Below, piece after piece: positions 2,067 to 60,982 of a stretch of 64,000 nucleotides of DNA (position 1 is the first letter of the stretch; every line of letters starts with the position of its first letter). Made by a program: the position numbers and the translations under genes. The notes beneath the pieces were generated by a model. It did no database searches. It saw only the letters and a program-made list of their open reading frames with translations, and was not told the DNA's origin. Source of the DNA: Botryllus schlosseri (taxonomy: Eukaryota); assembly GCA_051294905.1 (NCBI GenBank), contig CM119371.1, positions 16,246,001 to 16,310,000 on the forward strand. The letters are read 5' to 3'.

Positions 2067-4537
2067 TAGGGCAAGTTTTTGCAACTTTTGCAACTTTTTT
2101 TTACAGCTTCCGGCAGCTTGCTGAATACTCGGAAGACATGTAGCATGGTGTTTTAAGCTGTCTGGAGGGTTCTTATATTGCAACCTTTTGCAACTTTTCT
2201 CCATTTTTGTCATGCAACTTTTTGTAACTTTTTCGAATTTTCATGGAACTTTTTGCAAGTTTTTACGATCTTTCATGCAACTAACTTTTTACTGTCAATA
2301 TTTGGCAGTATATGTACGTAGATCGCTTGATTATTTCACTTCCGTTCAAATTTGAGGTCCTTTCTCAATTGACCGCCAAAATTATATTTTCACAGGGTCA
2401 ATTTTTTCAGGCTATTGATTTTGTTGAAGTCGCCAACACCGAGTTCTGCTACAGTGCATTGGATATGGATCGGTTCGAGTATCTCATACCCTAATAATTT
2501 CAAGGAACTTGTCCATAAATGCAACTTTTCAGAGCAACTTTTCTCAAAAATAAATGCAACATTTTACTGCAACTTTTGTGAAAAATAACTGCAACTTTGC
2601 ACGGATTTGACCAGTGGCGGCTCGTGACAATATCGGGTGGTGGGGCAAGGGCTGCAAGCGACTTTTTATCAAGATGACGTCACAATGGCGTTTTCCAACG
2701 TAAACAAGTAACTTAATGATGGTACGGTAACATGAATTTCCCGGCAACAGTGATTTTAACGTATGTGCCACGAGAGGTCTGCCGGTGAGCTGTGACTTGC
2801 AGTGTGGTAACTGCGTAAACGGCGTACGGAATAAAGATTCAACACGGTTCATGTTCGCACTAGACCTGACTAATTATCTGCAGAAATGGAAATTACTATA
2901 ACTCGAGAGATTGCGTAAGCCTAATTGGAAAGGTCAACGAGTTCGGACACATACGCAATTGTTATCTCATAGATTGGGCGTTGGGCCTGTCATATTGAAT
3001 CCAAAACATCATCCTGAAGAACTAAGAATAGCAGCCTCCGAAATTCAGTCTCGGTACAGCATAGGAGATTTTGGCCTTGAAACTGGAAACTGTAACACGA
3101 CACATACGGCTTTATTACTGTCTATAGGTCTGCTGCGAAATCGCCTTTGGATAATATATTACCGAATAAATACGTGGATGAAAGCCGTAAACTTAGTACA
3201 CAGTTACATGACATCATCGAGAAGTGGCCTCATGGCCCTTTTCGGTATGGTACACTGTCAAAATTAATGCGAACAGACCAACACCGAATTTTGCGTAAAA
3301 TTTACTGAGGAATAGGCTGATCAGGGGATCAGCTGCCGTTAGCCGCCATCGAAAACGAAATAGCTATCGCGCTTGACAGGGGGTTGTAAGCAAATGGCTT
3401 GAAGGCCACAATTTCACGGTGAAATTGACATTGGAGAATATAATATCGAAGTAAATATTTAAAGGCAAAAATGATTATATCATATATCATATCGTTGTAG
3501 GCTAAAGTGTCAGATCGGAGCACATCTCTACCATACTCGACCTTGATAACGAAATTACTGCCCTAATCATTGAGTGTCAACCTTGAGACTTGGCACAGCG
3601 TTCGATACTAAAATCAAGACATACCGTGCAAAAGCTTATGACGGTTCTAGGTAAGGAGCATCGTTAAAATCAATAGAGACCAATACCGGCTTTGCGTATA
3701 ATCTGTTAGCGATAAATGACGAGTCAGCTCTCACTCGAATCAGGAAACGAAATTACCACTAACACAGTTCAGTGAAAAACTTAAAACTTGGTACAGCATT
3801 CGGTACTAACATTAAGACTTACCGTGCCAAATGCCATAACCGATCTCAGTATTGAACATCGTCAAAATCAATGGATACCAATACCGGCTTTTGAGTAACA
3901 TCTGTTTGCGATACATGACGGTTCAGCACACACTCAACTTCGGAAACGGAATTACTACCCTAAACTTTAAGTAGAAACCCTGAAACTTGGCGCAGTGTTA
4001 AATACCACCATCACGACATGACATACCAAGTTTCAAGAGTTTTCATGGTGTGAAACACCATCAAAATCAACCTATACCAGCAAAGGTCTACTAAACGCAT
4101 ATGACGGTAACCGAGTTTAGATATAGATACGATTGTTACATCACACCTTAGGGGCACAGAGCTATTGTGCCCCGGTTTCTCGGTAATTTTATGGATAGGA
4201 GAGACTAAATCACCGTTTCTTTATCGTGCGCGGCTTTGAGAGAATAGACAGTGAAAGCTTGTTATGAGCGCTACCGGGGCATGCCCCGGCTAGGCGTTCG
4301 CAAAGCGAAAACACAGAAGAGAATTCGATTTTCGCAGAGACTTCGCTATATATGGGCATTTACAAGCGAAAGGACAAGAAGAATACGATTTTCGCTGTGA
4401 TTTCGGTATATATAGATTGGTGTGCGTCTATAAATGGTAAAGAATTGTTATTGAACAGAATTTTAGGTGGGGCAATGCCCCAGTTGCTCTATAGGACGAG
4501 CCGCCACTGGATTTGACTGCAACAAAAACTTGCCCTA
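2067..4537. mobile_element. hAT-type MITE with GCAACTTTT subrepeats, host of 2612-4509
   Basis: TIR TAGGGCAAGTTTTTG; TSD TTCATTAG on both sides. Confidence 0.88.
2612..4509. mobile_element. Non-autonomous hAT-type element with an internal ~200-bp tandem array
   Basis: TIR CAGTGGCGGCTCGT; perfect TSD GATTTGAC; second copy inverted at 15843. Confidence 0.9.
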
Positions 4538-10971: not shown

Positions 10972-11570
10972 GATGCAATATAATTCTAATTGAAGTTACG
11001 AAATGTTTCTATGCTATAAATTCAATTCTAATCAAATTGTATCATATGCCATGTTGAAGAAACTGCAGAGAACGTTATTACCGAGTGTGCTACGTACGCC
11101 AACGAAAGATGTCGGCTTATGGAGCTGCCGTACTGGACTTGAGAGTATACCCTTTATCATGGAAATATACTAACTACCGATTATATATTACCTTTGCCGT
11201 GGGAATTCATAGCAAAGACAAAGAGACGATAATGAATGGTTTAGTTGACTTTATATAATTATCGCCATATCTATTCGATTAGCAACTTTACAGTAGTGAC
11301 GCAAACGACCATAGTGGTTGTATGCGTCACTCAAATTGTTTTTAAACATAATATAGTGACTCAATATCAATTTTTTTACGAATTCAGTTAATCTGATTTG
11401 GAAAATATTGTTCAGTTATAAATCTAATCGGCAAAGCTGAATATCTTCTCGTTCTCCAAATCTGGTCGCACCACCATGAATTCCCAAACAGCAACATGGG
11501 CATTTGGGCAATTACCATCACTGATGTCGAGGCAGAATCTTCATCATACCAAACATTTACTTTCACTCAC

Positions 11571-11757
11571 TCGCACTGCTGCCCGTTTCCTCCGTCCATG
11601 AAGCAAGCGGTTACGTTCACTGTTGATGAATCGCATTGACAATTCAGGCCTTGCCAGCCTGCCTCGCACTCGCATATACCGCACGTCAGATTGCCTTGGT
11701 TACTGCACAGCGTGCTGTTGGCGGCTTGGCCCGGGCAGTTGCAATCGCATATGTACT
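11571..11757 (-). CDS. ITGB: Integrin beta exon 11, I-EGF1 and start of I-EGF2 (EYICDCNC...CSNQGNLTCGICECEAGWQGLNCQC...QQC)
   Basis: tctcAG and GTGAGT sites; Cys spacing; phase 1/2. Confidence 0.94.
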
Positions 11758-12017
11758 CTGAGATCGTAAAAAAGATAGGCTATTATTCTGATCTTATCAA
11801 AGCAGTCACCGCTGGGAATCAATAGGAAGTAACAGTAACGCTGTAAATGTCTACTCAAGTACAAATAGAGAGAATTACGAAAACCGAGTGGGAATGGAAA
11901 TAGAAATAAAATGAGTCCGTAAAAAATTCTTACAGGTAAAAGTATAAGTGGCGTTTTAAAGTGATTAAAGTGAATATTCGAGGACTAGTTTTGCCCAAAC
12001 AATTTAATGCTGTTAGG

Positions 12018-12591
12018 CAGGGCTGTAATGACTCGAGTCCGACTCGAGTCACGTTTATATTGTGACGCGACTTGACTCGAGTCAATTTTCAGATGCGTAA
12101 AATGACTCGACTCGAGTCAATTTGTGTATTCACTCGAATTGTATTCGAATCACTGCACATAACTCGAACCAAGTCATATGAGTCGAGACTAGGACAGCCA
12201 AGACCGACATTTCATTGTAATTTCGAAGAATAGTGAAGTCACAATTATTGGTTTTTCGTCTATCAGACATGATACTTAACAAATAGAGCCGGAAATTGTT
12301 AGGACTCGGGAAAATTACGATATTATGAACGTGAACCATTCTACATCACTAGAGCAGGGTTGAAAAAAGTTAGTCGAACCAGATTGAATTCAAAATTAAA
12401 CAGTGAACATAATAACTTGCGCTCGGACTCGAGTCACGACACTATTACTCGGAATCGACCCTCTACTTACTGACTTGCACTCGGACGTGACTCGGTGGTG
12501 AATTAAAAAATGACTCGACTTGACTGGAGTCCAAACTATAAAAGTGAGATTGACTTGTGACTCGGAACCTTGTGACTTGGTTACAATTCTC
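12018..12591 (+). mobile_element. GACTCGAGTC-rich hAT-type MITE
   Basis: TSD CTGTTAGG/CTGTTAAG; homologous to 12941-13467 (inverted) and 31170-31765. Confidence 0.82.
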
Positions 12592-12872
12592 CTGTTAAGT
12601 GGGAGTTGAAAGTAGTAAAAAACATAGCCATTGCATCAGTATGGTCCACTGCCGTCGTCTCGCAAAGTAGAAGTGCTTTGTTACTGGCGATTTCCATTTA
12701 GTGCTCAAATACACAGTGGTTGCGATATTCGAAGTTATATAATTTGTTACCGTCATAACGAGCCTACATCGCCCAGTTTTAATGTTAATTTACAAAATAT
12801 CAAGTAGAAAAAATATAACCTGGACATTTAATCTGGGCAAACCATCCTCAATTTTATGTCAAGTTTATAGAC

Positions 12873-13639
12873 CAGGTGTTACCAACCTGGGGACTATGAG
12901 CCCTTCTCACGGGCCATGAAAAAATGTAAAATTATATTTCCAGGGTTGTAACCAAGTCACAAAGTTCCGAGTCACAAGTTAATCTCAATCTTATAGTTTT
13001 AACTCCAGACAAGTCAGTCATTTTTAATTCACCACCGAGACAAGTCCGTGTGCAAGTCAGTGAGTGGATTGTCGACTCCGAGTCAGAGTCCAAGTAATTG
13101 TGTCACTGTTAAGTTTTGAGTTCAATCCTGTTTCACCCACTTTTTTAATTCTGCCTGAGTGATATAGAAGTGCTCGCATTCATAATATCATAATTTTCCC
13201 CAGTTCTAACAGTCTCTGGCCCGATTTTCTAAGTAACAGGACAGACATACGAAATACCAATAATGTGGTGACTTTACTATTCTTCGAAGTTACAATGAAA
13301 TGTCTCTTGGCTGTCCTAGTCTCGAGTCATATGACTTGGTTCGAGTCATGCACATTGACTCGAGTACAAGTCGATTCAATACACGAATTGACTCTAGTCC
13401 GTTCGAGTCATTTTACGCATTTGAAAAATCGTTCCGAAAAATCGTGACTCGAGTCATTACAACCCTGTGTACCTCTATTTATTGATCATCCCTCTCTGCA
13501 CTCACTATAATTTATACACGAGGTCTTTAATAACATGATGTTGTATCAATTTTTCCGATGGTTTGAAAACAATAGGTGGCCATTGAGTTTTTCCAATTTC
13601 GAACGGGGGCCACGATGTAGAAAAGGTTGGCAACTCATG
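12873..13639. mobile_element. hAT-type MITE containing a nested GACTCGAGTC MITE (12941-13467)
   Basis: TSD TTATAGAC/CTATAGAC; inner TIR CAGGGTTGTAA. Confidence 0.75.
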
Positions 13640-13721
13640 CTATAGACACTATAGTGTCATCAACATGGTGTCGCTTGGGTGTGAGGATGTGACATATGCA
13701 AACGATATTATCAGCACTCAC

Positions 13722-13824
13722 CCAGATCTATTGTGACTACATCAGTAAGAGAGCTCGATGTTAGATTGATTTGGTGCGATCCCTCCATGCACTCGTTGGT
13801 CGTAAAGCTCAATTCGAACGTTAC
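13722..13824 (-). CDS. ITGB: Integrin beta exon 10, hybrid domain end (VTFELSFTTNECMEGSHQINLTSSSLTDVVTIDL)
   Basis: ttttcAG and GTGAGT sites; VxFxxS...C motif; phase 0/1. Confidence 0.9.
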
Positions 13825-13847
13825 CTGAAAAGCAACACCACACGTAA

Positions 13848-14511
13848 GTGGCAAGATAGCTTAGTGTAGGGTTACCATACGTCCTATTTTAAGACGATTT
13901 GTCCTCTTTTTTGACTTTTTTGTGAGTGTCCTTGGGGGACGCCCAAATGTCCTCTTTTTTGAGAATTCAGGGTAAATATAGGGTATAATTCCAGTGAGAT
14001 ACAGTAAATCAGCTCTGAAGTAACGCTCCGGCGACTATTTCAGGAGCTGAGGCGGAAAGTTGACCTTTTTTAGAATTGAAGAAAAGTGTCAATATCTTAT
14101 ACCGAGTCGGAAAAATGACCCTTTTTTACTCAACCAATCACAAAGTCGGGGAAAATTTACTATTTTTCCGGATTTTTCTCCAGAATTGTAAGTCGGAAAA
14201 TTTTGAAAATGTGTACTTCTTTCACATTTCCAAAGTATGGTAACCCTAGCGTAGTGGTAGAATCCACGGCTGCAACACCACTGAATTTTGGGTTCGAGTC
14301 CGACCGAGGCCGAGTCCAAAATTCCTACCTAAGTGTTGAAGGTTCATCTAGGCCCCTACTCGCCATCTCATCCGTGGAAGCGGTGTCTCAAAAAGTCTAG
14401 AAGTGGGCCGTGCTACAAGATGGCAGCTTCGGAATCAAAAACAAGGAATATCGGCCTCGTGTAAATGACCATCGTAGTCGACAAACACCATAAATAGCAC
14501 AAACAAACAAC
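13848..14511 (+). mobile_element. tRNA-derived SINE (abundant family, AAAC tail) split by MITE 13867-14248
   Basis: Head GTGGCAAGATAGCGTAGTGG...CTGCAAC...GGTTCGAGTCC; MITE TSD GCTTAGTG/GCGTAGTG. Confidence 0.8.
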
Positions 14512-14637
14512 AGCGGATGTACTCTACGCAATAAAGTATGAAGGTGCAACTTCTGTCTATTAAAATGAAGCAATCATCTATTGCCAAGAATGAGTTCTCT
14601 ATGGGAATTTTATGAGCCTTCATCACATGGATTTATC

Positions 14638-15053
14638 TAGGCTTACCATACACTTTGTCAGAAATTTTGGACTTGCAAAACCGGAGAAGAATTCTCAAAA
14701 ACCGGTGAATTTTTCCCACTTTGTGATCGGTTGACTAAAAAAAGTCATATTTTCCGCTCAGAGCTCAAAATACCGTTTTTCTCGCCACGTTGCCGGGTGG
14801 TTGACTAAAAAAAAGGTCACCTTTCCGCTCAGAGCTAAATTCACCGTTTTTCCCTCCGAAATACCCGCCGGAGCTTCACTTCTGTGCTAATTTGCGGCAT
14901 ATCACTCGCAATTTGCTCTGAATCTGACCTAAATTTTCAAATAAGAGGACAAAATCTCAAAAAAGAGGACAAAAGGGCCGTCCTCCGAGGACACTTTCAA
15001 CAAAGTCGAAAAAGAGGACAAATCCTCTTAAAAGAGGACGTATGGTAAGCCTA
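14638..15053. mobile_element. hAT-type MITE, TAGGCTTACCATA family
   Basis: Perfect TSD GATTTATC; homologous to 4615-5182. Confidence 0.9.
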
Positions 15054-15930
15054 GATTTATCTCACTGTTGGATTCGGCAGTATTGATGTTTCGGGTGAAC
15101 AGGAAAAGTTATATTTGATTCAGTGTCTTATTGTCACAGTTGGGTCTATACTGAGATCTTCTTTATTTTATTGTTGCTAAACATTGACGATAGTGTTGTC
15201 TCGAAGAGGTTAAAACAAACACATAAATATCACAATATAACGTTTAAAGGATGTGACTAATCAGAAATACCTCTTGCATCAGTCATCGTCACATGACCAC
15301 GCGTAATTATCCCAGATAGCTAAGAAGGGGAAATTTTGACACTCTGGGTTATTTCAACGACAAAGACGTGCCAATATATCTTAGTGATCAACTGCAAAAA
15401 TTACCAAGAAGATTTAGCCTACGATATCTACAGTAAAAACCTCCTTCAAAATGGACCGAATATCAGTACAGTGCTCATCACGGTACACCACGTAATGTAG
15501 GCTATGATCGCATGTAAGAAGGTAGTATCGGGTTGTCGCAACGTGCTGTAATTGTTACAAAAAGCCGCCAACTACCGGATGTGTAGTAATCTAGTATATA
15601 GGCAAACAATAGGGCACGCACTGTGGTGGTGTGAATGCTATATTGATGCCTTATTAATGGCGAAATGGGATAGCGCACACGGTTTCAGTGTATGTTGATA
15701 GTAGATGTGGATATACAATTGGCAGGTTCAAAGCTTATCATGCAGTTTGACCTCTTCAACCTAATTTTACTTTCAACCCGATTTAACTGCTGCAATGATT
15801 CGAATCGATTCGTGAGAGCAGTTCTTCCCCGTTACTGCAAATCAGTGGTGGCTCGTCCTATAGGGCAACTGGGACATTGCCCCAGCTAAAATTCTGTTCA
15901 ATAACAATTATTTAATAAAATATTCATCTT

Positions 15931-15970
15931 TATTCCCGAAGCTTTTCGGCTGACCCTCGTCAGGGGAATA
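15931..15970 (-). ncRNA. Second identical minimal hammerhead ribozyme (inverted pLTR), sense to the integrin pre-mRNA
   Basis: Exact reverse complement of 17303-17342. Confidence 0.86.
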
Positions 15971-16307
15971 TCGTCAGCAATAATGCGAGAATTCGAATAA
16001 CTATGTTCAGCAACAATATATATCGCTAATTATGACGGCACACAGAAAATATACCAAGTTAGGAAAACGAGAGAACTGAAGCGTTGGCATGTTTGCCAAT
16101 AGAAGACTTTTTGACACATGGCCTGGTTATGTTGTAGAACAAGCGGATTGTTATGCTGCGATTTCGAGATATATGATTTGACAGACGGTGGGATGTGTTC
16201 TTTAATTCGGTCCTGCAACCGTTTGGAAGTTCTCCCTACGTACCGACAATCGCAGTGGCACTTGAATTCATAAATGACGTTACTTTGTTGTAAAGCCGGA
16301 AGAACGT

Positions 16308-17160
16308 TGACACGTTCGTGATCTTCAATAATGAATCTGACTGTGGTTTATAGGAAGCCCACGTTTTCGGGTCATTACCTTCGATGGAGCTCTTTCAGTC
16401 CAAAAAGTCGTAAAATCAATTTAATCGGCACCTTGGTCCACCGGGCGTTGATGATTTGTTCCGAGGTCAAATTGAATAGTGAACTTGATTTTATCCGTAA
16501 AATTTTCATTGACAACGGATACCCTGAGTATGTCATCAAGCGGACAATAAATAATAAGTGTTAAGTCATCGGAATGATACCAAACCAAATGAAACCCACG
16601 AAGAAGTCTCTCGTGAAAATAGGGATGTGTACATTCATCTACCTTGGATTGGCCCGGTTTCTTATCGATTTGAGAAACAGATAACTTCAGCAGTCCATCG
16701 CTGTTATCCAGCGGTGAAAACCAATGTTGTTTTTACCACGATACCAATGTTTCCTGCAGTCCGAAAGGACGTTCTCCCGGCTTTACAGCAAAGTAACGTC
16801 ATTTATGAATTCAAGTGCCACTGCGATTGTCAGTACGTAGGGAGAACTTCCAAACGGTTGCAGGACCGAATTAAAGAACACATCCCACCGTCTGTCAAAT
16901 CATATATCTCGAAATCGCAGCATAACAATCCGCTTGTTCTAGAACATAACCAGGCCATGAGTCAAAAATCTTCTATTGGCAAACATTTACTAGAAAATCA
17001 TACATGTGCTGCTAACTACCACGAGGACATGTTCTCTGTATTGGCTAAGGGTCGCAATTTATTTCATTTGTCTGTTCTTGAGTCCACCATCATCACTATG
17101 AGTAAACCTAGTTTATGCCAACAGAAAGAATATGTGTATCATTTGAAAATCGCGCATTAA
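16308..17160 (+). pseudogene. Penelope-like RT C-terminus/thumb and GIY-YIG endonuclease remnant
   Basis: DTFVIF (tail of the YVDD motif), VYRKPT, NGYP, NVIYEFKC...YVGRTSKRLQDRIKEH, IGKHLLEN; internal deletion and a frameshift near 16558. Confidence 0.9.
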
Positions 17161-17302
17161 CTTGTTTGGCTTCGCTATCTCCATGCCAACGTTTCAGTTC
17201 TCTCGTTTTCCTAACTTTGTATATTTTCTGTGTGACGTCATAATTAGCGATATATATTGTTGCTGAACATAGTTATTCGAATTCTCGCATTATTGCTGAC
17301 GA

Positions 17303-17342
17303 TATTCCCCTGACGAGGGTCAGCCGAAAAGCTTCGGGAATA
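17303..17342 (+). ncRNA. Minimal type I hammerhead ribozyme in the PLE pseudo-LTR
   Basis: TATTCCC-CTGACGA-GGGTCAGCC-GAAA-AGCT-TC-GGGAATA: 7-bp stem I, intact core, palindromic loop III, predicted cleavage after C17335. Confidence 0.88.
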
Positions 17343-19214
17343 AATATGAATATTTTATTCAAATGTGTTATGAAGTTCTGTACTCCTAAGCGTCTCTTTG
17401 TGAACAATTATTTATCATTTATAGACGCACAGCAATCAATATATCCCGAAGTCACAGCGAAAATCGCATTCTTCTTGGGCTTTGGCTTGTAAATGCCCAT
17501 TATCGAAGTCTCTGCGAAAATCGTTTCTTCCGTGTTTTCGCTTTGCGAATGCCTAGCCGGGGCATGCCCCGGTAGCGCTCAAAACAAGCTTTCACTGTCT
17601 ATTCTCTCAAAGCCGCGCACAATTAAGAAACGGTGATTTACTCTCTACTATTCATAAATTTACCGAGCAGGTGGGGCAACATAGCCTTGTTGCCCTTAAG
17701 GTGTGATGTAACAATCGTATCTATATCTGAACTCGGTTAACTTAAATATGCGTTGAGTCGACCTTTGTTGTGTAGGTCGATTTTGATGGTGTTTCACACC
17801 ATGATAATTCATGAAACTTGGTTTGTTATGTCGTGATGGTGGTATTCAACACTTCTCCAAGTTTTAGGGTTTCTACTTAAAGATTAGGGTAGTAATTCCT
17901 ATTCCGAAGTTGAGTGTGTGCTGATCCGTCATGTATCGCAAACAGATTTTACTCAAAAGCCGGTATTGGTATCCATTGATTTTGACGATGTTCCATACCG
18001 AGATCGGTCATGACATTTGGCACGGTAAGTCTTAATGTTAGTATCGAACGCTGTACCAAGTTTTAAGTTTGTCACTGACTATGTTAGTGGTAATTCCGTT
18101 TCCTAAGTCGAGTGAGAGTTAACTCGTCATTTATCGCTAACAGATTTTACGCAAAGCTGGTATTGGTCTCTATTGATTTTAACGATGCTCCTTATACCTA
18201 GATCCGTCATGAGCTTTTGCACGGTATGTCTTGATTTCAGTATCGAACGCTGTGCCAAGTCTCGAGGTTGACACTCAATGATTAGGGCAGCAATTTTGTT
18301 ATCAAGGCCGAGTATGGTGGAGATATGCGCTGATCTGACACTTTAGCCTACCTAACGAACGCATTGCGGATTTCACGCACAAGCCGGTGTATCTGTGCTA
18401 ACGTTAACTGTGTTCCATACTGAGATAGGTGATGAGATGATGATATCATGAAACAGTGTACTAACATTCTCGGTTTGCATTTAAATATTTACTTTTATTT
18501 TATATTCTCCAATGTCTTGGCCTTCAAGCCATTTGCTGCTAATAGTTGTTTGATTATCGGTGTGAATTATAGTCTCGATTGGTCGTATCGCAGCATGCGA
18601 AAACTGTAGTACCAAGCTACCCACGCCAGTGGAAATACCCACGCCAGTGGAAATACCACTTCCGTGCAGTCGTGATAAACCCACATTATCGCGAAGTGGA
18701 AGGAGATGGGCATGGTCGAAAAACTCTCAAAATATCTTTAATGTGGCGTGGAACTGGCATATAAGGTACACATTTGAGCTTTCCGCATTACCCGTAAACG
18801 TTTCTGGCGTGCCAAGGAGTCATACGCGATCACCAGACTCGGTTCCAAGCCTGATACTCGGGCCGTGTTATTTTTGGCATATTTAGGGAGGAATTCTGGC
18901 GTCGATGTCGATCGGACTCGAATCCGCAGCCTATTGGCGTTGCAGCTGTGAATTATACCACTACGCTATCTCGCCACTCCTATCAGCACTGTTGATACAT
19001 ACAGTATTTTATTTCATTTGCCAGTTACTTCCATGCCATAGCCTATCTGTAAGACCTCGATTGTCCTCTATTTCTCTTGGTACGTAGCGCGAAAAGCCTC
19101 TAGATCTGATTAGTAGCAGTTTTCTAATAAGCGCAACTGCGTGTTACAACCAGAGACGCAACAGCCGATTACAATGCCATGGTAATCAACAATTTAAATT
19201 TCAATACAATCAAT

Positions 19215-20194
19215 TAGGGATGGTGTGAACGTGAGGTTCACGTTCGTGTTCTGTGTGTGAACCTCGGAAATTTAGAGGTTCGCGTTCACAACAGAACCTT
19301 GGTAGGTTCTGCACTGTGAACCTTTTTGGTAAATTGTAATTTGCACTTCATTATAAGATCTTTGGTTCAAGTTTATTGCATTTCAACTGCGGGTCACTCT
19401 ATGCATGGCGCTTGCAGCATAAAAAATTAACACTAAACGAGCATGTACTATGACAACCTTAAAAGTTTTACTTGTTTTTTGTTACCGAAAATTTCTCGAA
19501 ATATTCAGCTTTCCGTTTTGAATATTTAGTGACCCTCCGCTGTGAGCTTGACCCGCAATCACACAACATCACGAGCGATATACGTAGTCAGCCAATGATG
19601 CTTATTCAACCAATCAATGACATTGATATCGTTTTCTGATGTAAAATATCGAGCGGGCGTACGGGGTCAATCTTGACTTCATATCTTTACTGTATCATTA
19701 AAACCAAATTCGTTCGATTAAGATGCTGGCTACTGCTATATAACTTGTTGTTTATGGTATCAGTAGCGAGTATAGAAACCCGTCTTACACTCTGCTCAAC
19801 ATCAATGTAGCAATACTCAGACTCCGAACACATTGTCCGGTCTGGCTAAGACCTTTGAGGCGTAAGCTTATATTTCATGGTACGTCCTCGTCGAAATTGT
19901 TGGCAAAGCGACGGAATGTATTGATTTTATGAGATTATTATATCCTTTGATAACCGCGGTTGATACATTTAGCGACGTTTAAAACGCCAATATGTACTTC
20001 AGCAATGCGACATTATGTGGCCCGAGTCTTCGCTAGGTATCGTGTACATTAATATAGGCTATCACTTCATTGAAAGATAGGGTTGGAATTAGCAATATGA
20101 CGTCACGAGGTTCACGTTCGTGTTCACACAGAACCTTTCAAAAAGGTTCGCGTTCACACGAACCCGAACCTTTCAGAGGTTCACACCATCTCTA
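19215..20194 (+). mobile_element. ~1-kb MITE, TAGGGATGGTGTGAAC family
   Basis: TIRs with GTGAAC/GTTCAC subrepeats; TSD CAATCAAT. Confidence 0.9.
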
Positions 20195-20213
20195 CAATCA
20201 ATGTCAAACGCAC

Positions 20214-20348
20214 CTCGTCTCCAATGGCTATGTTGTTACAGTCCATGTCCCCGTCGACAATGACACCGGACGAACAGTACGTTCTCGAAGAATACGTCAC
20301 GTGACTAGGAATGCTGCTGGTGCGCACCACGAGTCTTCCCTTAATTTT
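20214..20348 (-). CDS. ITGB: Integrin beta exon 9, hybrid domain (KIKGRLVVRTSSIPSHVTYSSRTYCSSGVIVDGDMDCNNIAIGDE)
   Basis: tttcAG and GTGCGT sites; CxNIxIGDE motif; phase 0/0. Confidence 0.93.
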
Positions 20349-21296
20349 CTGAAATAAAGCGGTCACAAATATAGGGATTTCCAGTTTGGTGTAAAACAGA
20401 AGCAGTGGTAGGATAGTAGATATCTCATACGCCGACCAACATACATCCATTGTCCATAAGATACTGAGGTGAGTTGAGCTCCACGGTTGATGAGACACTG
20501 AACTCATTTAGAGTCGGATTTACCAATGCGTAGTAGCAAAGGGATAGCTTATTCAATTGGCCCTTTGTTATTTCATATCTCATCATCACTACATGTTGAT
20601 GTTGTATGTCGCAACGTTACAATTGATACTACAGAGTGGCTTTGTATTGTTTCGCAATAGAGACGGTAGTTTTACTGCGTTGGGATTGTCGGATTGTTAG
20701 CTAACAATCGGCGACACAGATAAATTTGGGCCTCACAATGTATAGTTTTTTGCCGTCCTGGTTTGTAACAACTCCGAACTTTACATTCGGAGTAAATTTA
20801 AAGGGGGTTCTGGTACTCATACATTATCATCATTTGAATCCCAGAATCAGCGAGACAATAGCCTTCTATTAATACCATAGTTATGATAAATTATGAGTTG
20901 TTTACGATGAATTGGGCTACCGCAAGTGACGCTTTGCTCCTCCGTCCTTCACCTCTCGCCCTATATTTTTGTACGGTAAATATGGTAATTGAGGAATTGT
21001 GAATGTTTAACTTAAAATATACAGTCATACGAGACAAGTATTAGAATTTTTGAATTTGTAATTCAAATCGCGAAATCCGTCATGCCACCACAAAATGATC
21101 CTTTGACGTATGTGCTGTGCATTTGGCATGGCACACAAAACCGTGTGACACTTGCACGTGTTCGGTTGTCTTGATGTCAGAGATGGTGTTGGGATTAAAA
21201 AATCTCAAGTTGAAGTGTCCCTTAGTAAAGTGTCTTATTCACAAATGCTCAACTACCGCCAGCACTGCGTGATAAAATATGAAGCATACGACTTAC

Positions 21297-21389
21297 CTCG
21301 TAGGCATCAGCGATGAGAGACACAATATTGTTTGAGTCGCTGGCGAGCTGCGAAACTTCCCCAAGCTCTTTCAGTACGTTGGGTATGTC
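21297..21389 (-). CDS. ITGB: Integrin beta exon 8 (DIPNVLKELGEVSQLASDSNNIVSLIADAYE)
   Basis: ctttAG and GTAAGT sites; LxxDSxNIxxLIxxAY motif; phase 0/0. Confidence 0.93.
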
Positions 21390-21660
21390 CTAAAGGTCAG
21401 GTATGCATATGTCAACAGCAGAGGCGGTCAAACTCAAGTGCATGTTGACGAAACGACATGAATTCCGACTATTACAAGTGATTTACCTGACATGCGGAAC
21501 TTACTTCGGGCATAAATAGCAAATAAAGGGTATTATGAAGAGTATTCACTATTCAGGTAGTATCGAAATGTATATTTGATCGATCTATTGAATTAGTAGA
21601 GGTAACTCCGTTAATTTCTGCTACTGCAAGCAGAAGTAGCGATTACTAACACATGACAAA

Positions 21661-26304: not shown

Positions 26305-26365
26305 CTAAATAGAGACAATTCGGTACTTGGAATCAATTTATGGAATTCGATTTGCGAGTCGTAGT

Positions 26366-26955
26366 ATAGATTACTAACCTACGGATGGATACGCAACTCC
26401 CGCAAAGTCTGTCGATACGGTCGGGCAAGCAGTTACTCCCGTGACTGGGCAATCTAAAGCAGCATAATTGGTAGTGCTTTAACTGCCGACCAGAGCGCTG
26501 AAAATTAATACAACTGGTCTTAATCGAAAGCTGGTGTCGCACTGATTCCGACAATACAAATTAAAATTTTGTGACAGCAATGGAACCACCTCAAAACAGC
26601 CCTCAAATTCTGAATATCGGCGTTTCTCCGAACAATCGCTTGACGGAATTGTCGGTTGTTATTTTGATTACGTAGCGGCGCTGCCATTGTTGGAACAATG
26701 ACGATTTTCAGACTTTGCGGGCTGTTTGGGGTCGTTCCATTGCCCTTACAAGATTTTAATTTGTATTTTCGGAATCAGTGCGACACTAGCTTTCGATTAA
26801 AGCCAGTTATATTCAAATTCAGCGCTCTGGTCGAAGGCTACAGCACTACCAATTACGCTACTCATAGATTGCTCACTCGCTCAGCAATACGAGACACTGC
26901 TTGCCCAAGCGGAACCACCATGAGTTGCGTATCTTTAAGAAGGTTAGTAATCTAT
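26366..26955. mobile_element. Foldback element with 9-bp TSD (Mutator-like)
   Basis: Long imperfect palindrome, termini ATAGATTACTAACCT; flanks AGTCGTAGT on both sides. Confidence 0.75.
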
Positions 26956-27008
26956 AGTCGTAGTAAAACTCGTGACGAGACACACTGAGAGAGGAGAGGT
27001 AGTCACTG

Positions 27009-29450: not shown

Positions 29451-30027
29451 CTCTACAGCATCAAATATTTCAGCGTGTTTTGTCAAAAAGAGTACCGCTC
29501 CTTAGCGAACTGACACATCTAACGTGGCCCAATCACTAATTACTTGGGACGTAAAATTGTGATATGTTTACAAACCTCCCACGAAACTTTCCAATGAGAG
29601 CATTGTCCTAAGCATATATACAAAAAAGAGTAATTCACTAACCGGCTAATCGATACAATATACAAATAGGATTGCATTTAAAACAAACAGTATTTCAAAA
29701 CACCATGTTTTAAACAGTGTTTTAAAAAAAAGGCCTTTAAAAAATTGTGATTTTTTAAGATGTAAAATTATGCCATAATTGTGTAAATACTTTATACAAA
29801 AAACATGTTGTATGAGCCTACGGACAATTACCACCCGATGTAGCCGACGTATCGATATGGGATGGTTGGCACCCTCAAAATAGTCGGTTCAACAGCAATA
29901 GTATATGTATATTTCGTCAAAGGAGCTAATTTTACCCTATAATACAACATACAAATATACTATTTTGAGCCACACCATGAAAACACAACCGACATCTGGA
30001 TCAGGTTATAAGGATTGATAAACTCAC

Positions 30028-30259
30028 TGCGCTGTGACCGTGCTGGTGTAGGGCATCATCACTTTGTCTACGAACGACCCGAAGCCCACTTCCACGTTCT
30101 GTGTGATGTTGTCCTTGATATTGTTAACCAATCTGGCTCCCAACCCTTTCAGTGTGTCCAAATCGTCGCTCATAGAGTTTGATAAATCCATTACGTAGTA
30201 CAAGTCCAACGGGTAGTCGATGACTTTGTGGAAGGTGATGTTCACCTTTTTCGTTTGAC
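30028..30259 (-). CDS. ITGB: Integrin beta exon 4, beta-I domain with MIDAS/ADMIDAS (DYPLDLYYVMDLSNSMSDDL...GFGSFVDKVMMPY)
   Basis: Within ORF 30024..30323; gcAG and GTGAG sites; phase 1/2. Confidence 0.96.
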
Positions 30260-30659
30260 CTGCCAGATATGAATGCGGTAATTTAGTTACACTTGTCCGC
30301 AATAAAGTCGAACTCATCGACAAATATATATCGTTGTGTGAAAATTCCCGTCATTACTATGCGCAGAGGTGGCCAAAGTAGCCAGTGTTGGTACTCCAGT
30401 AGCAGTAGAAGCAATGCCATAAATTTCTACTCAGTTACAAGCAGAAACAGCGATTTTCGATAGGCCTACATGTCAACACTACTTCAAGTGGAAATAGATA
30501 ATGAAAGGTTTGATACCTGGTCCAGTAAGCATATATAGTTTCAGAAATTGGATTGGGTATAAGGGTAGAATATTTTTATTAGGTATTAGGAAGTGGTGAC
30601 ATTCAAGATTGCAAGAAATATTTTCGCGACCAACGCAAGATGACTATATGACGCTACAG

Positions 30660-35936: not shown

Positions 35937-36532
35937 ACTAATTTAAGCCTACACACAAAATTTGGTTCAATTCCAGCCAGTAACCGCTTTGGTACAGGAG
36001 AAGTAAGTTTCTATTTATTATATAAAAATAAATAATAAATTTTTTTTAAATTTTTTGTTTACCCCATGAAAGTGTTAGGCTGTCTATAGAAACGATGCTC
36101 ACCAAATTTGGTTCAATTCCAACCAGTGGAAGCGGAGTTATTGCCATCGAAAATTTGGATTTGAATAAAATAGTATCTACGGTGAGCACAACTAAAATAA
36201 ATAAACAAAGAATCGGTCACCGTAAATACTATTTTATTCAAATCCAAATTTTTCGACGGCAATAACTCCGCTTCCACTGGTTGGAATTAAACCAAATTTG
36301 GTGAGCATCGTTTCTATAGACAGCCTAACACTTTCATGGGGTGAACAGAAAATTTTCAAATTTTTTATTATTTATTTTTATATAATAAATATAAACTTTC
36401 TTCTCCTGTACCAAAGCGGTTACTGGCTGGAATTGAACCAAATTTTGTGTGTAGGCGTAAATTAGGTAACCTAACAATTTTATCAAGTAGCCAGTACGAT
36501 TTGAGAAAAAAAGTCATTTTTTAAGAGCCCTA
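35937..36532. mobile_element. Foldback palindrome, TAGGGCTCTT family, left end truncated
   Basis: About 250-bp inverted arms, spacer GCACAACTAAAATAAATAAACAAAGAATC; same family as 42976-43638. Confidence 0.85.
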
Positions 36533-37139
36533 ATGCACACTGAATGAAAAGTAAAAGAAGTCATTGAAATTTCCGGGACAGTGATCACAGTGGAACTGAT
36601 ATACATAAATTTGGCAATCTCTGGTTTCCGCATATCTTATGTTTAGGACACCGAATCCTTTGAGCACGGATTTGTAGGACGCACAACCTGGCCAAATCGG
36701 GCCCCTGGGTATCATGCGTAGGACGTGTTGTTGAAGTATTGGTATAGTGACTTGAGTGCGCTAACGCAGGCAGCTCCACAGCAGATGATGCCATATTGTA
36801 ATTTCGATTGGAATGTGGTTTTGGTTCCGCAAAATTTTGACGCTCATTGGTGGCGGCTACTTTTGAACATGCAAGATGCGGCTTTGCAACTAAGGCAAGA
36901 AGAGTAATGAGTCTACAAATAGACACCAACTTTGAAAATCTAGTCTGCAGTTACTGCAATGGCTATTGCGCGCGTTTCTTATGATGATTTCAAACATGTT
37001 GTTTGTGGTATTCATGGTGTTTGTCGACTACTATGGTCATTGGTCATTTACACCAGGCCGATATTTTCAATTTTTATTCCGTAACTGCCGACTTATAGCA
37101 CGGCCCACTTCTAGGCTTTTTGTAAGACACCGCTTACGC

Positions 37140-38759
37140 CAGGGGCGGGCAACTTCTCCAGTCGGCGGGCCGGATATAGGAAAATTAAATACTTGGCGAG
37201 CCGGATTGCTGACTCGAAACATTATTCGCCCATTTATCAACATACGCAAGGAATAAATCGTATTTAATGAATGTATTTTAATAGTGACGATGACAATGTG
37301 GATTTGAGAACAGCATTGTCATACAAGCACCACCATGTTTGCTTCTTTCTGATCGATCAACACGGTACAATCCCTAATTAAGATTTGAAGGCGTTCGATA
37401 AGCCCGGTACCACAAATTCATCAAGATATCTCTTCATTAGAGTTTATAAACTATAGTACAGGGGTGGCCAACCTTTTTGCCATTCACGGCCGCATTTCGA
37501 CTACTCATGTAGCCACGGCCGCAATCAAGGCATACACTACACATGCTAAACTGTCCATGTCCTTTTCCGCTGAACTGCGGACTTATCTATTTAATCACAA
37601 AGGCATACTAGACGCACCGACTTCGCGAGTGGTCACTGGTGACTGGTCAATGTGGTCGTGTTATGGGCCGTACATAATCGCACGAAGCGCGAAAATATAT
37701 TTCCTGATTCACCTATGTATTTCGTCATAAATAATAGTATTTTTCCTATTGTTTCTCATCCCATGTCATCAGATTCAACTGCAGATTTAATTTTTCGAAA
37801 ATTTAGGACAAGATATCAATGATGATGCATCTTCGGGTGGGCCAATTATAATTAGTCACTTGATTGCATCCTGTTATTTCTTGACCTACCATCAAGATTG
37901 TCCGTAAAGTGAGGAGTACAAGACTCCGAGTTGGTACTTTTATATGAGGCGCATCATTTTCCTCTGCTGTTCACGTCTGTACTGTGGGGCTATGATTGCA
38001 AAGGGCGCCACTATTGAAATCGATAAACGAAGTCACATTGAATCGCGCGCAGCGGGAAGAAATTTTCAAGATTAATTAGGATCTCTCAAAAAATCGAGAC
38101 TCAATTTGTAAATTCAAATTGCATGTCGATGGCCGCCAACACATACGCTAAAATTGAATTACTTGTCCACGGCCGCACAAATTTCCCTTCTACGGCCGCA
38201 GGTTGGCCACCCTGGTTTAGTGGGTGATGAGATATAGCGTGGTTGTTCAACAGTGTGGCCTATTTTATCTCGATATTGAATTCATGCGGCCCGCGGCCTC
38301 TGCGAAATTTCAAAGTGGCCCGCGACCCGTTTCGAGTTGGCGACCCCTGGCATAAGTGATGTCTTAGAAAAGCCTAGAAGTGTGCCGTTCTACAAGTCGA
38401 CGGTTACGGAATCAAAAATATGAAATGTCGGCCTAGTGTAAAAGACCATTGTTGTTGACAAACACCATGATTACCACAAATGACATTCGGGTTGAGTACA
38501 TCGTAAATGCCGATAATGCAAGTCTTCTCGCTTCGACTAACTTACGAGTAAGCACCACCCTCGCTCACTGCGCAGTGCGCATACATGTGTATAATAACAT
38601 ACAGTCACTAAAATTTGACGTTTACGCAAGTAGTAGGGAATCTTTGAATACTAAGGCCGCGGGCCACATTATCATGTAAGACAGAAAACTTGCCGCGGGC
38701 CGGACAAAACCCCTTCGCGGGCCGGATCCGGCCCGCGGGCCGTATGTTGCCCACCCCTG
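37140..38759. mobile_element. Composite hAT-type element inserted in a minus-strand SINE; contains nested element 37459-38214
   Basis: TIR CAGGGG(C/T)GGGCAAC; perfect TSD GCTTACGC. Confidence 0.88.
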
Positions 38760-41353: not shown

Positions 41354-41668
41354 CTGTTAAATTGGTTTCAATTAAGTTTGACAATCTGTGACAAATTCAT
41401 CCCACGAAATTGTACCGCATTCACAAAAACATTGATGATTCAATTCGATCTTAGCAGCTACAGCATGAATGCCTAGCGATGAAACGACTTACGATATACG
41501 ATACCGGCGAGATATTAGGAAATTCAGTCTCATGTCCTAGCTTAGCGCAAATGAGTGCGGTAGACCATATGTGGGACTTCGGTCGCTTCATTTGATGAGT
41601 ATAGTAGCAATCGATTGGTTGCTAATCTATACTCTCTTTCACGTTTACATTCACAGTATAGGCTCATC

Positions 41669-42941: not shown

Positions 42942-42975
42942 CTCATTACCACATCAAGAAGTTTAGTCTGTACAA

Positions 42976-43638
42976 TAGGGCTCTTCAAAAATGACTTTTT
43001 TTCTCAAATCGTACTGGCTACTTGATAAAATTGTTAGGTTACCTAATTCAAGCCTACACACAAAATTTGGTTCAATTCCTTCCAGTACCCGCTTTGCTAC
43101 AAGTGAAGAAAGTTTCCATATATTATATAAAAATAAACAATAAAAAATTTGAAAATTTTCTGTTCACCCCATGAAAGTGTTAGGCTGTCTATAGACACGA
43201 TGTTCACCAAATTTGATTAAATTCCAACTAGTGGAAGTGGAGTTATTGCCGTCGAAAAATTTGGATTTGAATAAAATAGTATTTACGGTGAGCACAACTA
43301 TAATAAATAAACAAAGAATCGGTCACCGTAAATACTATTTTATTCAAATCCAAATTTTTCGACGGCAATAACTCCGCTTCCACTGGTTGGAATTTAACCA
43401 AATTTGGCGAGCATCGTTTCTATAGACAGCCTAACACTTTCATGGGGTGAACAGAAAATTTTCAAATTTTTTATTATTTATTTTAATATAATAAATAGAA
43501 TCTTACTTCTTCTGTAGCAAAGCGGTTGCTGGCTGGAATTTAACCAAATTTTGTGTGTAGGCTTAAATTAGGTAACCTAACAATTTTATGAAGTAGCCAG
43601 TACGATTTGAGAGAAAATGTCATTTTTGAAGAGCCCTA
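42976..43638. mobile_element. Complete foldback MITE, ~315-bp arms
   Basis: TAGGGCTCTTCAAAAATGAC termini; TSD CTGTACAA/CTGAACAG (6/8). Confidence 0.88.
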
Positions 43639-43959
43639 CTGAACAGCTACAATTGACATCTACTACAATGAAATGAGCCAAGCGCCGCCCACGACACAAA
43701 ATTCGAACCATTACCGCCGTTTCCGAATATGCAGCACCCGTTATATTGAAGTGTTCTTGTCGGAAAGAATATTATCAACCAAACACTAAGGAACATCTAA
43801 CATAGCCAAGTCGCGAATTAGTTTCGCACAAAAAGTTTGATACGCCTAAGGCTCTAAAAGTAAGATTTAAAAAGAGAACTTTACCATGAGCACACGAGAA
43901 GAGAGTTGCTCTATACGTAACCTATACCGATCACGTTACTGGGTCTCTCCAGATATAGC

Positions 43960-48272: not shown

Positions 48273-49441
48273 CTTATAATTAACCACTAACTACCCCAAG
48301 ATTACAATACGGTGAATCGAAATGAAGCTTCCACGACGCACCAGACTAGTGCTTAGCAGTGTGTTAGATCCTAACGCGTTCTTATGCTGTTTAATATTTA
48401 CAACGCTGTTGCATTGAAATGCGTAACATCTTGCGTCGATAGAAATATCCACACGTTAGCAAATGTATTCTTAATGCGCGATATTACCATGTACGTGGAT
48501 TATTTTACGTACGTAGTATTACATATCACCGCTGTAAAAGTGTTATAGCGGTAAGAGCTTGGCCAGATTGGTGGAGACATCCTTTTTCGTGAAGAAGGCT
48601 ACCTGCTTGGAAGTGGAGATGACTTGAATGGACGATTAATGCGCACTTCGTGACGTAATACTTGCCGCGAGCAATCACCTCTGTTCAGGCCGTGGTATGA
48701 TTTTAGTGATTCATCAAAAGGCCGAAGTGGGCCGTATAACAAAGGATACAACCTGGTTCGCTTCCTACGTACTATACGCTTGATGACGGACATTTACATA
48801 AACACAGCGTAATGTTTACTGTAATGCAACTTCAAAAGTGTAAGCTCTTTCATTTTGTATGGAAATTAATCAGGGAACGTCTGAAACATTAATGCGGTCA
48901 GTCAGTCGATGGTGTCGAACACGGAGATGAATCGATGAGAGCATTCCGTCAAAACACTACAATATGAGACGGTAGCTCACCATATGTATTCTATTGCTTC
49001 CCCGTTATACAGAATGCTTCCGCAACGCTGCCGTTATAACTTTCCTTCTCGCATTTGATTTGCCGGAATTTGCTACCTTCTGAACAAAATCTGGGTAGTA
49101 CCAGCAGCAGCAGTAGCAGTAGTAGACTACCGGTAGTAGACTCTGGTTTTCAAATTTCATGAGAAAAGAGCGTGTGCGTCGTTATCGATTTCCATCTTTA
49201 ATCGCAGCGTAACAGGTATAGTCCTGTGTCTTGATGTCCAGTATATTTGATGTGATAGATGGTTGGGTGCCGGAATGATGATGTTAAGCTTATAGTATTT
49301 TGTATACCGCTCGTTCGGATATCCGCATCAGCTCCTACGTGACCTTTCGTATGCTAAGGTTATTCACGTGAGCCGTGATTGACAGCTCACCAAAATGAAC
49401 TGAGCGCAAGTGCGCTATGTGGAACCTCTGTATGTTTATCT

Positions 49442-50018
49442 ATAGATAACCAACCTACGTATAGATACGCAATACCCGTCGTCACGCTTGCTTGCTCGGA
49501 GGAAATTACTTTTCAGCAATCTGAACGCAACGTAATTGCCAATAGCATAGCTGACGATCCGAGCGCTCAAATTAAATGAAGTTGATCTTATTTGAAAGCT
49601 ACTGCCGCGCTGAATCTAAAAATATACAATAAACATTCATCAAGGCAATGGAACCAACCCGCAATAGCCTTCAAAGTCTGAAAATCGGCATTGTCTCAAA
49701 CAATTGGAGCGACGCAGTACAATGACCATAACGATGGCCCTTGCGTGTCTGCAGTTGTTCAGAACAATGCCGATTTTCAGAATTTGAGGTGTATTTCGAG
49801 GGGTTTCCGTAGCCCTGATCAGATTATAATGTTTATTTTCGGAATCAGTGCCACAGTAGCTTTCAAATAAGATCAACTGCATCCAATTTGATCGCTCGGG
49901 TCGTCAGCTTTGGGATTGGCAATTACGTTGCGTTCAGATTGCTGAGCAGTAATTTCCTCCGAGCAAGCAAGCGTATGACGACGGGTGTTGCGTATCTATC
50001 CATAGGTTAGTTATCTGT
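49442..50018. mobile_element. Foldback element related to 26366-26955
   Basis: Termini ATAGATAACCAACCT / AGGTTAGTTATCTGT; flanks TGTTTATCT/AGTTTATCT. Confidence 0.75.
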
Positions 50019-50062
50019 AGTTTATCTGTGTATAAAGTTAGATTTTGAAATGAACTGTGATG

Positions 50063-60462: not shown

Positions 60463-60495
60463 TTATAGTTGAATTGTATGTTTATATTGAAATGA

Positions 60496-60529
60496 ACCCG
60501 AATATTTTCGGCTAACACTCGTCACCGGT
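60496..60529 (-). ncRNA. Degenerate minimal hammerhead motif (core GTGACGA)
   Basis: ACCG-GTGACGA-GTGTTAGCC-GAAA-ATAT-TC-GGGT on minus; a different core substitution plus a stem I mismatch. Confidence 0.6.
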
Positions 60530-60815
60530 AATCGTCAGCAACTAGTAGAAAATCGGAAATAACATTGTATATCAACAATCGTATGACAAAATATGACGTC
60601 ACCAGCATGAAATGTCGAATACAAGAGCGTTCAATGTACTATTTTAATATGGTACACGAACTCCTTCTGTAGACAAAACTTGGGCTGATGTATTTTGACA
60701 AAGATCGACTCCAAGGCTCACAAATGAAAGTGTGAGCGGCCCGTTCCGATGACGCGAAATTTGTCGTCGTTGATATACAATGTTCTTTCCAATTCTCTAC
60801 TAGTTGCTGACGATT

Positions 60816-60849
60816 ACCCCAGACGAGTGTCAGCCGAAAATATTCGGGT
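60816..60849 (+). ncRNA. Degenerate minimal hammerhead motif (core CAGACGA)
   Basis: ACCC-CAGACGA-GTGTCAGCC-GAAA-ATAT-TC-GGGT; one core substitution. Confidence 0.65.
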
Positions 60850-60982
60850 TCATTTCAATATGAATATACTATTCAAATGTATATTGAAGTTGTGTACCTC
60901 AAAAAAGCTCTGTAATAATAATAGCGACCAAATATTAATTCATTCAGGCTGGTGCGAGACAACATTGTTGTAATAGGTAATT

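Follow-up and report, generated by a model that had tools for sequence, protein, structure and literature searches.

The window, meaning here the whole 64-kb stretch of DNA that was analysed, contains a minus-strand integrin-beta gene, and one of its introns holds a Penelope-like element (PLE) insertion with two hammerhead motifs. Five homologues tile this single gene from about position 41360 down to 1423, a span of at least 40 kb, and a search with the minus-strand ORF at 30027-30350 recovers 37 proteins, headed by integrin-beta sequences labelled Clavelina, Styela, Ciona and Halocynthia, so that the host is most likely a tunicate. In an integrin-beta labelled Styela clava, residues 396-451 align to 20378-20211, while residues 450-486 align weakly (E 0.26) to 13827-13723. 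The intron and its flanking exons are arranged as follows:

20214-20378, minus strand: upstream integrin-beta exon (tblastn with P0014, E 4e-7, and with P0006, E 0.001; far boundary approximate)
13825-20213, minus strand: integrin-beta intron with the insertion (GT/AG ends, in-frame join)
13722-13824, minus strand: downstream integrin-beta exon (in-frame join; weak tblastn in two of five homologues)

By homology, the intron at 13825-20213 is real. The intron ends, the in-frame join and the homologue alignment uphold the proposal of an earlier sequence-only reading that the minus-strand hammerhead copy lies on the strand of the integrin pre-mRNA.

Six long inverted-repeat elements are located within the gene span, in seven blocks, two of which come from the 15915-17402 element. 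Long inverted-repeat or palindromic elements are seen at 12086-13427, 13867-15053, 26365-26956, 35938-36465, 36996-38486, 42968-43646 and 49440-50020; five of these are inside the integrin gene, so that long RNA hairpins are expected to be common in its pre-mRNA. Two other repeats within intron 13825-20213 appear to be polymorphic. The repeat at 14630-15053 is skipped by an X17 contig of unique depth, in which 14629 is followed directly by 15054, and the one at 19205-20192 by an X18 contig that runs from 19204 straight to 20193.

The insertion consists of a forward body followed by a pLTR and a tail, preceded by an inverted copy of the endonuclease region and the pLTR:

15838-18358 (15838-15914 plus 17403-18358), unstranded: host repeat split by the insertion; its unbroken copy at 3492-4515 shows 90-92% identity
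15903-15914, unstranded: left target-site duplication, 12 bp, AT-rich, identical to 17403-17414
15915-17402, plus strand: full extent of the Penelope-like insertion, a head-to-head, non-autonomous copy of 1,488 bp bounded by the duplication
15915-16091, minus strand: inverted pLTR copy without tail (181-nt block, five mismatches against 17182-17362)
16089-16307, minus strand: inverted endonuclease-region copy, 97% identical to 16769-16986 (Pfam GIY-YIG, E 6e-4)
16308-17160, plus strand: forward body, which opens at the region of the RT catalytic motifs, has lost about 40 codons and its reading frame, and continues into thumb and GIY-YIG
17346-17402, plus strand: first 19 codons of the following ORF unit, lying within the pLTR
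17359-17402, plus strand: tail, 44 nt, right arm only
17403-17414, unstranded: right target-site duplication, 12 bp

In tblastn against full-length RT plus GIY-YIG proteins, the element is matched by P0040 (E 7e-83) and P0042 (E 3e-70), and RT (PF00078) is found in eight of ten longer homologues. The forward body matches residues 521-532, 573-646 and 663-841 of P0040 in changing frames, and its GIY-YIG domain (PF01541) scores E 5e-4, 20.8 bits against a cut-off of 22.6. An intact single RT-EN ORF is absent, since the sequence covers only P0040 residues 521-841, and these with a gap and shifts of frame; the broken frame and missing codons rule out an autonomous copy. By eye, the 19-codon pLTR translation resembles the N-termini of P0040 and P0042. 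The C-terminal GIY-YIG after the RT, the pLTR with an ORF start and a hammerhead, and the target-site duplication are all present, which places the insertion among endonuclease-bearing PLEs. A non-LTR retrozyme was considered and rejected, the structure being an inverted pair with coding remnants and not a series of tandem, direct, non-coding units of a few hundred bases each.

The two arms show 10 differences over 396 aligned bases. The inverted arm is missing 198 nt of the forward arm (16984-17181), with a 3-nt microhomology at the gap; a spliced intron as the source of this gap is ruled out by the lack of GT-AG ends on either strand. A paralogous repeat near 4440 passes through the insertion site uninterrupted. 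The joint 15902->17403, with 12 shared letters, represents the empty form and is found in RNA run X21 and contig run X17, reaching a depth of 470 in X17; as this is far above unique depth, the joint reflects paralogous host repeats and not an empty allele. One X18 contig ceases to match at 15872. Over the element body, X17 contig depth is 12,800-34,200 against 62-85 on unique pieces, which is not a copy number; the excess over unique depth in both contig runs points to a multi-copy family. An internal array of about 199-bp units is contained in the host repeat, at 17779-18275 and 3535-4079.

Each pLTR copy carries one hammerhead, the positions of which are given below for the element strand:

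15931-15978, minus strand: hammerhead, pre-mRNA-strand copy, 48 nt with leader
17295-17342, plus strand: hammerhead, element-strand copy, 48 nt with leader
17295-17300, plus strand: leader, part of the 48-nt hammerhead
17303-17309 with 17336-17342, plus strand: stem I, 7 bp
17310-17316, plus strand: core
17317 with 17325, plus strand: G10.1 paired with C11.1, a single-pair stem II
17295-17300 with 17319-17324, plus strand: pseudoknot helix, 6 bp, predicted to stack on the lone 10.1-11.1 pair across a 1-nt linker (17318)
17326-17329, plus strand: GAAA
17329-17334, plus strand: dimer palindrome AAGCUU, which takes in A15.1 and U16.1
17335, plus strand: C17

The exact 40-mer occurs twice in the 64-kb window, at 15931-15970 (minus) and 17303-17342 (plus), with no mismatches, and in none of 100 shuffled windows. 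A hammerhead descriptor finds these two sites only; on simulated 64-kb sequences it returns a mean of 0.03 matches, and a 7-bp stem I appears in 0 of 200. The presence of a hammerhead in both pLTR copies, as first proposed, is thereby confirmed, and the features of the element and the motif agree with the assignment to Penelope-type hammerheads with a short palindromic stem III. The conserved core and NUH cut site of type I hammerheads in RF00163 are present. Rfam Hammerhead_1 (RF00163), the model named for checking in the sequence-only reading, matches 17304-17341 in a 121-nt scan with E 0.00087; its 23 bits fall short of the 34-bit gathering score, and the motif is not picked up in an 8-kb scan. 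The core and stem I of that reading stand; its 40-nt extent is too short, as 8 nt more on the 5' side belong to the motif. Likewise, the palindromic loop described as AGCT is present, and the full dimer palindrome extends to AAGCUU with A15.1 and U16.1. The first CUGACGA, at 17296, is ruled out as the catalytic core, having no fitting flanking stems. In contig run X17, one base at 17305, within the 5' strand of stem I, is missing in 11,397 of 23,213 of the depth, so family copies differ in stem I length.

Read from the sequence, the predicted cuts fall at 15938/15937 (minus) and 17335/17336 (plus), the former 2,113 nt upstream of the 3' splice site of the integrin intron. Stem III has at most two pairs, and its formation requires a dimer. 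The palindromic 15.1-16.1 segment is kept in all seven aligned rows, as AAGCUU in the 15931-17342 element and as AAUAUU and AAAUUU in relatives.

The six bases lying two positions 5' of stem I are complementary to the six bases preceding C11.1. This complementarity was tested on prokaryote genome contigs with a leader-blind pattern, in which nothing is fixed except the core, some of stem I and the ends of the palindrome. This pattern gives 12 matches, five of which (L014-L018) are AT-rich and similar to PLE proteins; in all five the leader helix is paired at 6/6 positions and is followed by GA. Among the seven non-PLE matches, one reaches a 6/6 helix when given free choice among ten offsets. 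The window also contains an older relative:

60469-60897, unstranded: Penelope-like remnant, also head-to-head but older; neither hammerhead core is unaltered, the palindrome is AAUAUU and the leader helix is retained

This remnant is about 78% like the pLTR of the 15915-17402 insertion and has no clear target-site duplication, a single 10-mer with one mismatch being the closest. Seven rows are aligned: one copy from the 15915-17402 insertion, the two arms of the remnant, and L014-L017. L018 is left out because it duplicates L017, as are the seven non-PLE matches. Across these rows the leader helix is paired in 42 of 42 cells with two-sided change at five of six pairs, against 24-40% paired in slid-register controls. 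The ordinary second pair of stem II is broken in four of seven rows, and the 10.1-11.1 pair is kept in all seven. These counts represent about four lineages, from rows picked after inspection, and much of the change possibly reflects one 2-nt register shift. By covariation, the 6-bp leader helix exists. In the most likely fold, a variable 1-nt linker separates the lone 10.1-11.1 pair from the 6-bp pseudoknot, a geometry that H-type pseudoknots suggest to be feasible.

The contigs with PLE-like fragments (L007, L010, L014-L018 and L026) belong to two genomes titled bacterial MAGs, and an apparent decayed LINE piece is seen by eye beside L007. The fragments are most likely animal host DNA binned by mistake. 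In genome G001, four of six pattern matches are unrelated bacterial sequence. In the GC-rich Pirellulales contig L023, a minus-strand match at 601-632 has a 6/6 leader helix and the palindrome, with three stem I pairs and no PLE similarity; it is probably a chance match. A metagenome scan gives six matches, none similar to PLEs, and viral contigs give neither relatives by protein nor pattern matches.

The leader also changes the computed equilibrium fold. Without it, the core pairs with the loop (P 0.90); with it, this misfold drops to 0.56 while leader-loop pairing reaches 0.38, and a 40-nt construct that lacks the leader would probably misfold. In the 17295-17342 copy, the leader repeats the first bases of the core. 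This repetition, the pairing drawn away from the core-loop misfold, and the 2-bp stem II possible in the window copy would also suit a leader helix that acts as an off-switch or decoy, competing with a 2-bp stem II and forming no pseudoknot of the active fold. Such a role is unlikely: the second pair of that stem II is the one broken in four of seven rows where 10.1-11.1 persists in seven, a bulged alternative fails in three of five rows, and the leaders of L014 and L016-L018 do not repeat the core yet pair at 6/6. Furthermore, a type II hammerhead with a 1-bp stem II and a 6-bp pseudoknot is described as active and fast in PMC3088659, which speaks for the pseudoknotted fold.

Pseudoknots between bases preceding stem I and loop II are reportedly common in hammerheads according to the abstract of Lunse et al. 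2017, so the knotted variant may be covered there. Among the papers listed in searches on the subject, no title or abstract reports a pseudoknot in PLE hammerheads. In the passages of PMC8557442, PMC10085705, PMC7761336 and PMC11722881 that use it, the word "pseudoknot" concerns other RNAs. That a Penelope hammerhead with a leader pseudoknot on a one-pair stem II is undescribed is an appreciable possibility, which we place slightly short of even.

In the computed fold of the integrin pre-mRNA, the two arms form 396 inter-arm pairs, and 48 of 48 motif nucleotides are paired with the twin at a mean probability of 0.999. The suggestion that the antisense twin masks the sense copy thus holds in the equilibrium model. 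In snapshots of the growing transcript, about 316 inter-arm pairs are possible before the first motif base emerges. Masking as a special property of this locus does not hold, because a plus-strand transcript is masked as fully (48/48); equal masking in both orientations means that it is built into the head-to-head geometry. The twin duplex over the motif amounts to -100 kcal/mol, against -4.3 for the palindrome dimer contact, and the monomer active fold to -1.8 to -2.6 kcal/mol, against -12.3 for the misfold, in a model to which pseudoknots are external. All folds are equilibrium snapshots free of proteins, helicases, editing, kinetics and pseudoknots. The 48 identical nucleotides between the arms are expected by chance with P = 0.29 at a divergence of 10/396, and a run of 109 consecutive identical bases around the motif with about 6%, for a stretch chosen after the fact. 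On these figures the motif appears no better conserved than the arms, and arm divergence gives no signal of selection.

Four of 24 listed sequencing runs were mapped to 11400-21500 at 90% likeness, with about 6% and 3% of two RNA runs sampled. Unique bins in the intron and exons reach an RNA depth of no more than 0-0.64, and most mapped reads derive from repeats elsewhere. No splice joint across intron 13825-20213 appears among the 15 joints listed of 791, in a gene barely covered at depth 0-0.64, and the three listed molecule-end pile-ups include none at either cut site, at the low power of that depth. The RNA reads neither support nor refute cleavage. In RNA run X21, the bin with the forward pLTR shows a strand-biased depth of 75.9 against 7.8, in a bin that also includes host-repeat sequence. 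Counts of T>C against A>G are 111 and 80, and 118 and 93, in the RNA runs, and 102 and 64, and 86 and 52, in the contig runs, in reads mostly from other copies; owing to this origin and the equal T>C excess in the contig runs, RNA editing of the duplex is not readable.

The 15915-17402 insertion is very probably an ordinary, fairly young, dead head-to-head Penelope-like copy, a passenger in an intron that is not cut. The duplication, tail and junction suggest that the element endonuclease would have cut an AT-rich site within another intronic repeat, that copying would have left a truncated body and an inverted copy of the element's own 3' end, and that both hammerheads would have arrived within the pLTR. 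The fold most likely for the motif when the element is active and in tandem has a 7-bp stem I, a single 10.1-11.1 pair and a 6-bp leader pseudoknot, and cutting would presumably occur only when two copies pair through AAGCUU or when an element protein assists. In the integrin pre-mRNA, the computed folding suggests that the antisense arm, being made first, would zip the sense copy into a duplex of about 400 bp on its emergence; the intron would then stay uncut and the insertion would be removed by splicing. Both cores and the leader helix remain intact in the element, a point against the passenger reading.

Two further proposals assign the hammerheads a consequence for the host. The sense copy could cut the integrin intron co-transcriptionally, alone or paired with family transcripts, and so lower or regulate integrin expression. 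An intact core does lie on the pre-mRNA strand, 2,113 nt upstream of the 3' splice site, family transcripts seem to exist in view of the strand bias in X21, and the splicing of CPEB3 is described as tuned by an intronic ribozyme (PMC10919898). Against this, the -100 kcal/mol twin duplex far outweighs the -4.3 of the dimer contact, the upstream remnant is disqualified as a partner in cis by its altered core and by a palindrome that does not match (+3.3 kcal/mol), the listed end pile-ups, of low power, avoid both cut sites, and PMC11167929 found no RNA-seq ends at the cut site of an anole element. We regard this regulatory proposal as highly improbable. Cutting of the host intron is itself unlikely in the model, because stem III needs a dimer, only one sense copy is present and the arm duplex can form beforehand; no second sense copy lies within the mapped gene span. 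With the motif apparently no better conserved than the arms, the view of the host intron as a likely target is not supported. None of the papers listed in a literature search dealt with PLE hammerheads cutting host introns. PMC4209133 describes the minimal PLE hammerhead as inactive as a monomer and weak as a dimer, and PMC11167929 the anole PLE motif as cleaved only with element protein, dispensable for insertion and free of RNA-seq ends; slow intronic ribozymes leave splicing intact (Fong 2009, as cited in PMC10919898).

Masking could instead act family-wide, if hammerheads harm host introns and selection removes sense copies that lack a mask, leaving the head-to-head ones. It is automatic in both orientations, inverted arrangements are found in L010, L016-L018 and L026 (six loci tested) as well as in the second remnant, but depletion from introns, which is common to many transposons, counts against such a purge. 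Retrozymes are described as under-represented in Xenopus introns in bioRxiv 10.64898/2026.07.22.740005, which would favour purging. Head-to-head structure is, however, explained by the transposition mechanism (PMC3846280) and occurs also in clades without hammerheads (PMC8557442), and the purge appears improbable. A wider version, in which marine-invertebrate PLE hammerheads with the leader pseudoknot cut fast once dimerised or protein-bound, free sense copies damage introns, and the self-masking head-to-head form survives in genes, is speculative and equally doubtful. PMC3088659 states that a pseudoknot is able to raise hammerhead rates by orders of magnitude, so the knotted subfamily may outpace the minimal motifs tested so far.

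At an otherwise ordinary locus, the way in which the motif knots is the sole feature that looks unusual. Hammerheads of Penelope elements cleave poorly in vitro and are dispensable for insertion in the one reconstituted system (PMC4209133 and PMC11167929), which leaves their role open. A covarying pseudoknot subfamily would imply selection on the folded RNA in active lineages and would supply a better construct for activity assays, since an assay limited to the 40-nt core would be likely to come out falsely negative. The geometry of masking also offers a simple genome-wide test of the intron cost of transposon ribozymes.

The head-to-head arrangement with opposite-strand hammerheads is already published. 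Dual hammerheads on opposite strands are noted for PLEs in PMC4209133, while PMC3846280 and PMC8557442 describe pLTRs in inverted orientation, tails at a single end, deletions at microhomologies and insertion within other repeats. With the head-to-head copies of the latter two sources, the insertion shares an inverted 5'-truncated copy, a tail at one end, a pLTR with the first codons, a microhomology deletion and insertion into a repeat; the tail is 30-40 nt and the duplication 8-10 bp in the copies covered there, whereas here they measure 44 nt and 12 bp, in a tunicate host.

Self-cleaving motifs on the sense strand of a host intron are represented by the CPEB3 ribozyme (PMC10919898) and the C10orf118 and RECK hammerheads (PMC3088659), a position that the present copy shares, its cleavage being predicted. 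Those ribozymes show conservation between species, and each of them cleaves as a single motif. Unlike them, the motif here is part of a young multi-copy transposon, lacks a sign of selection between its arms and faces an antisense twin.

The PLE minimal hammerheads of PMC4209133 have in common with this motif the type I topology, the CUGANGA plus GAAA core, the NUH site, the short palindromic stem III, the position in both pLTRs adjoining the ORF start and the occurrence as opposite-strand pairs. Their stem II is a hairpin of several pairs that as a rule follows a bulged base, where the 15915-17402 family keeps only 10.1-11.1; in the rows of the 2014 supplement that were compared, all stem II hairpins have at least 3 bp, in contrast to the one pair and 6-bp leader pseudoknot seen here. 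In a review (PMC7761336), PLE motifs are described as lacking helix III or the usual tertiary interactions. With the pseudoknotted hammerheads of Perreault 2011 (PMC3088659), the motif shares a Watson-Crick helix that joins stems I and II, here of 6 bp beside the single-pair stem II; a covarying helix between the two stem sides, by which that study recognises such folds, is found in 42 of 42 cells from about four lineages. The example tested there is a metagenomic type II hammerhead with full stems, whereas the present motif is type I, retroelement-borne and dimer-dependent, and draws its helix from the 5' leader.
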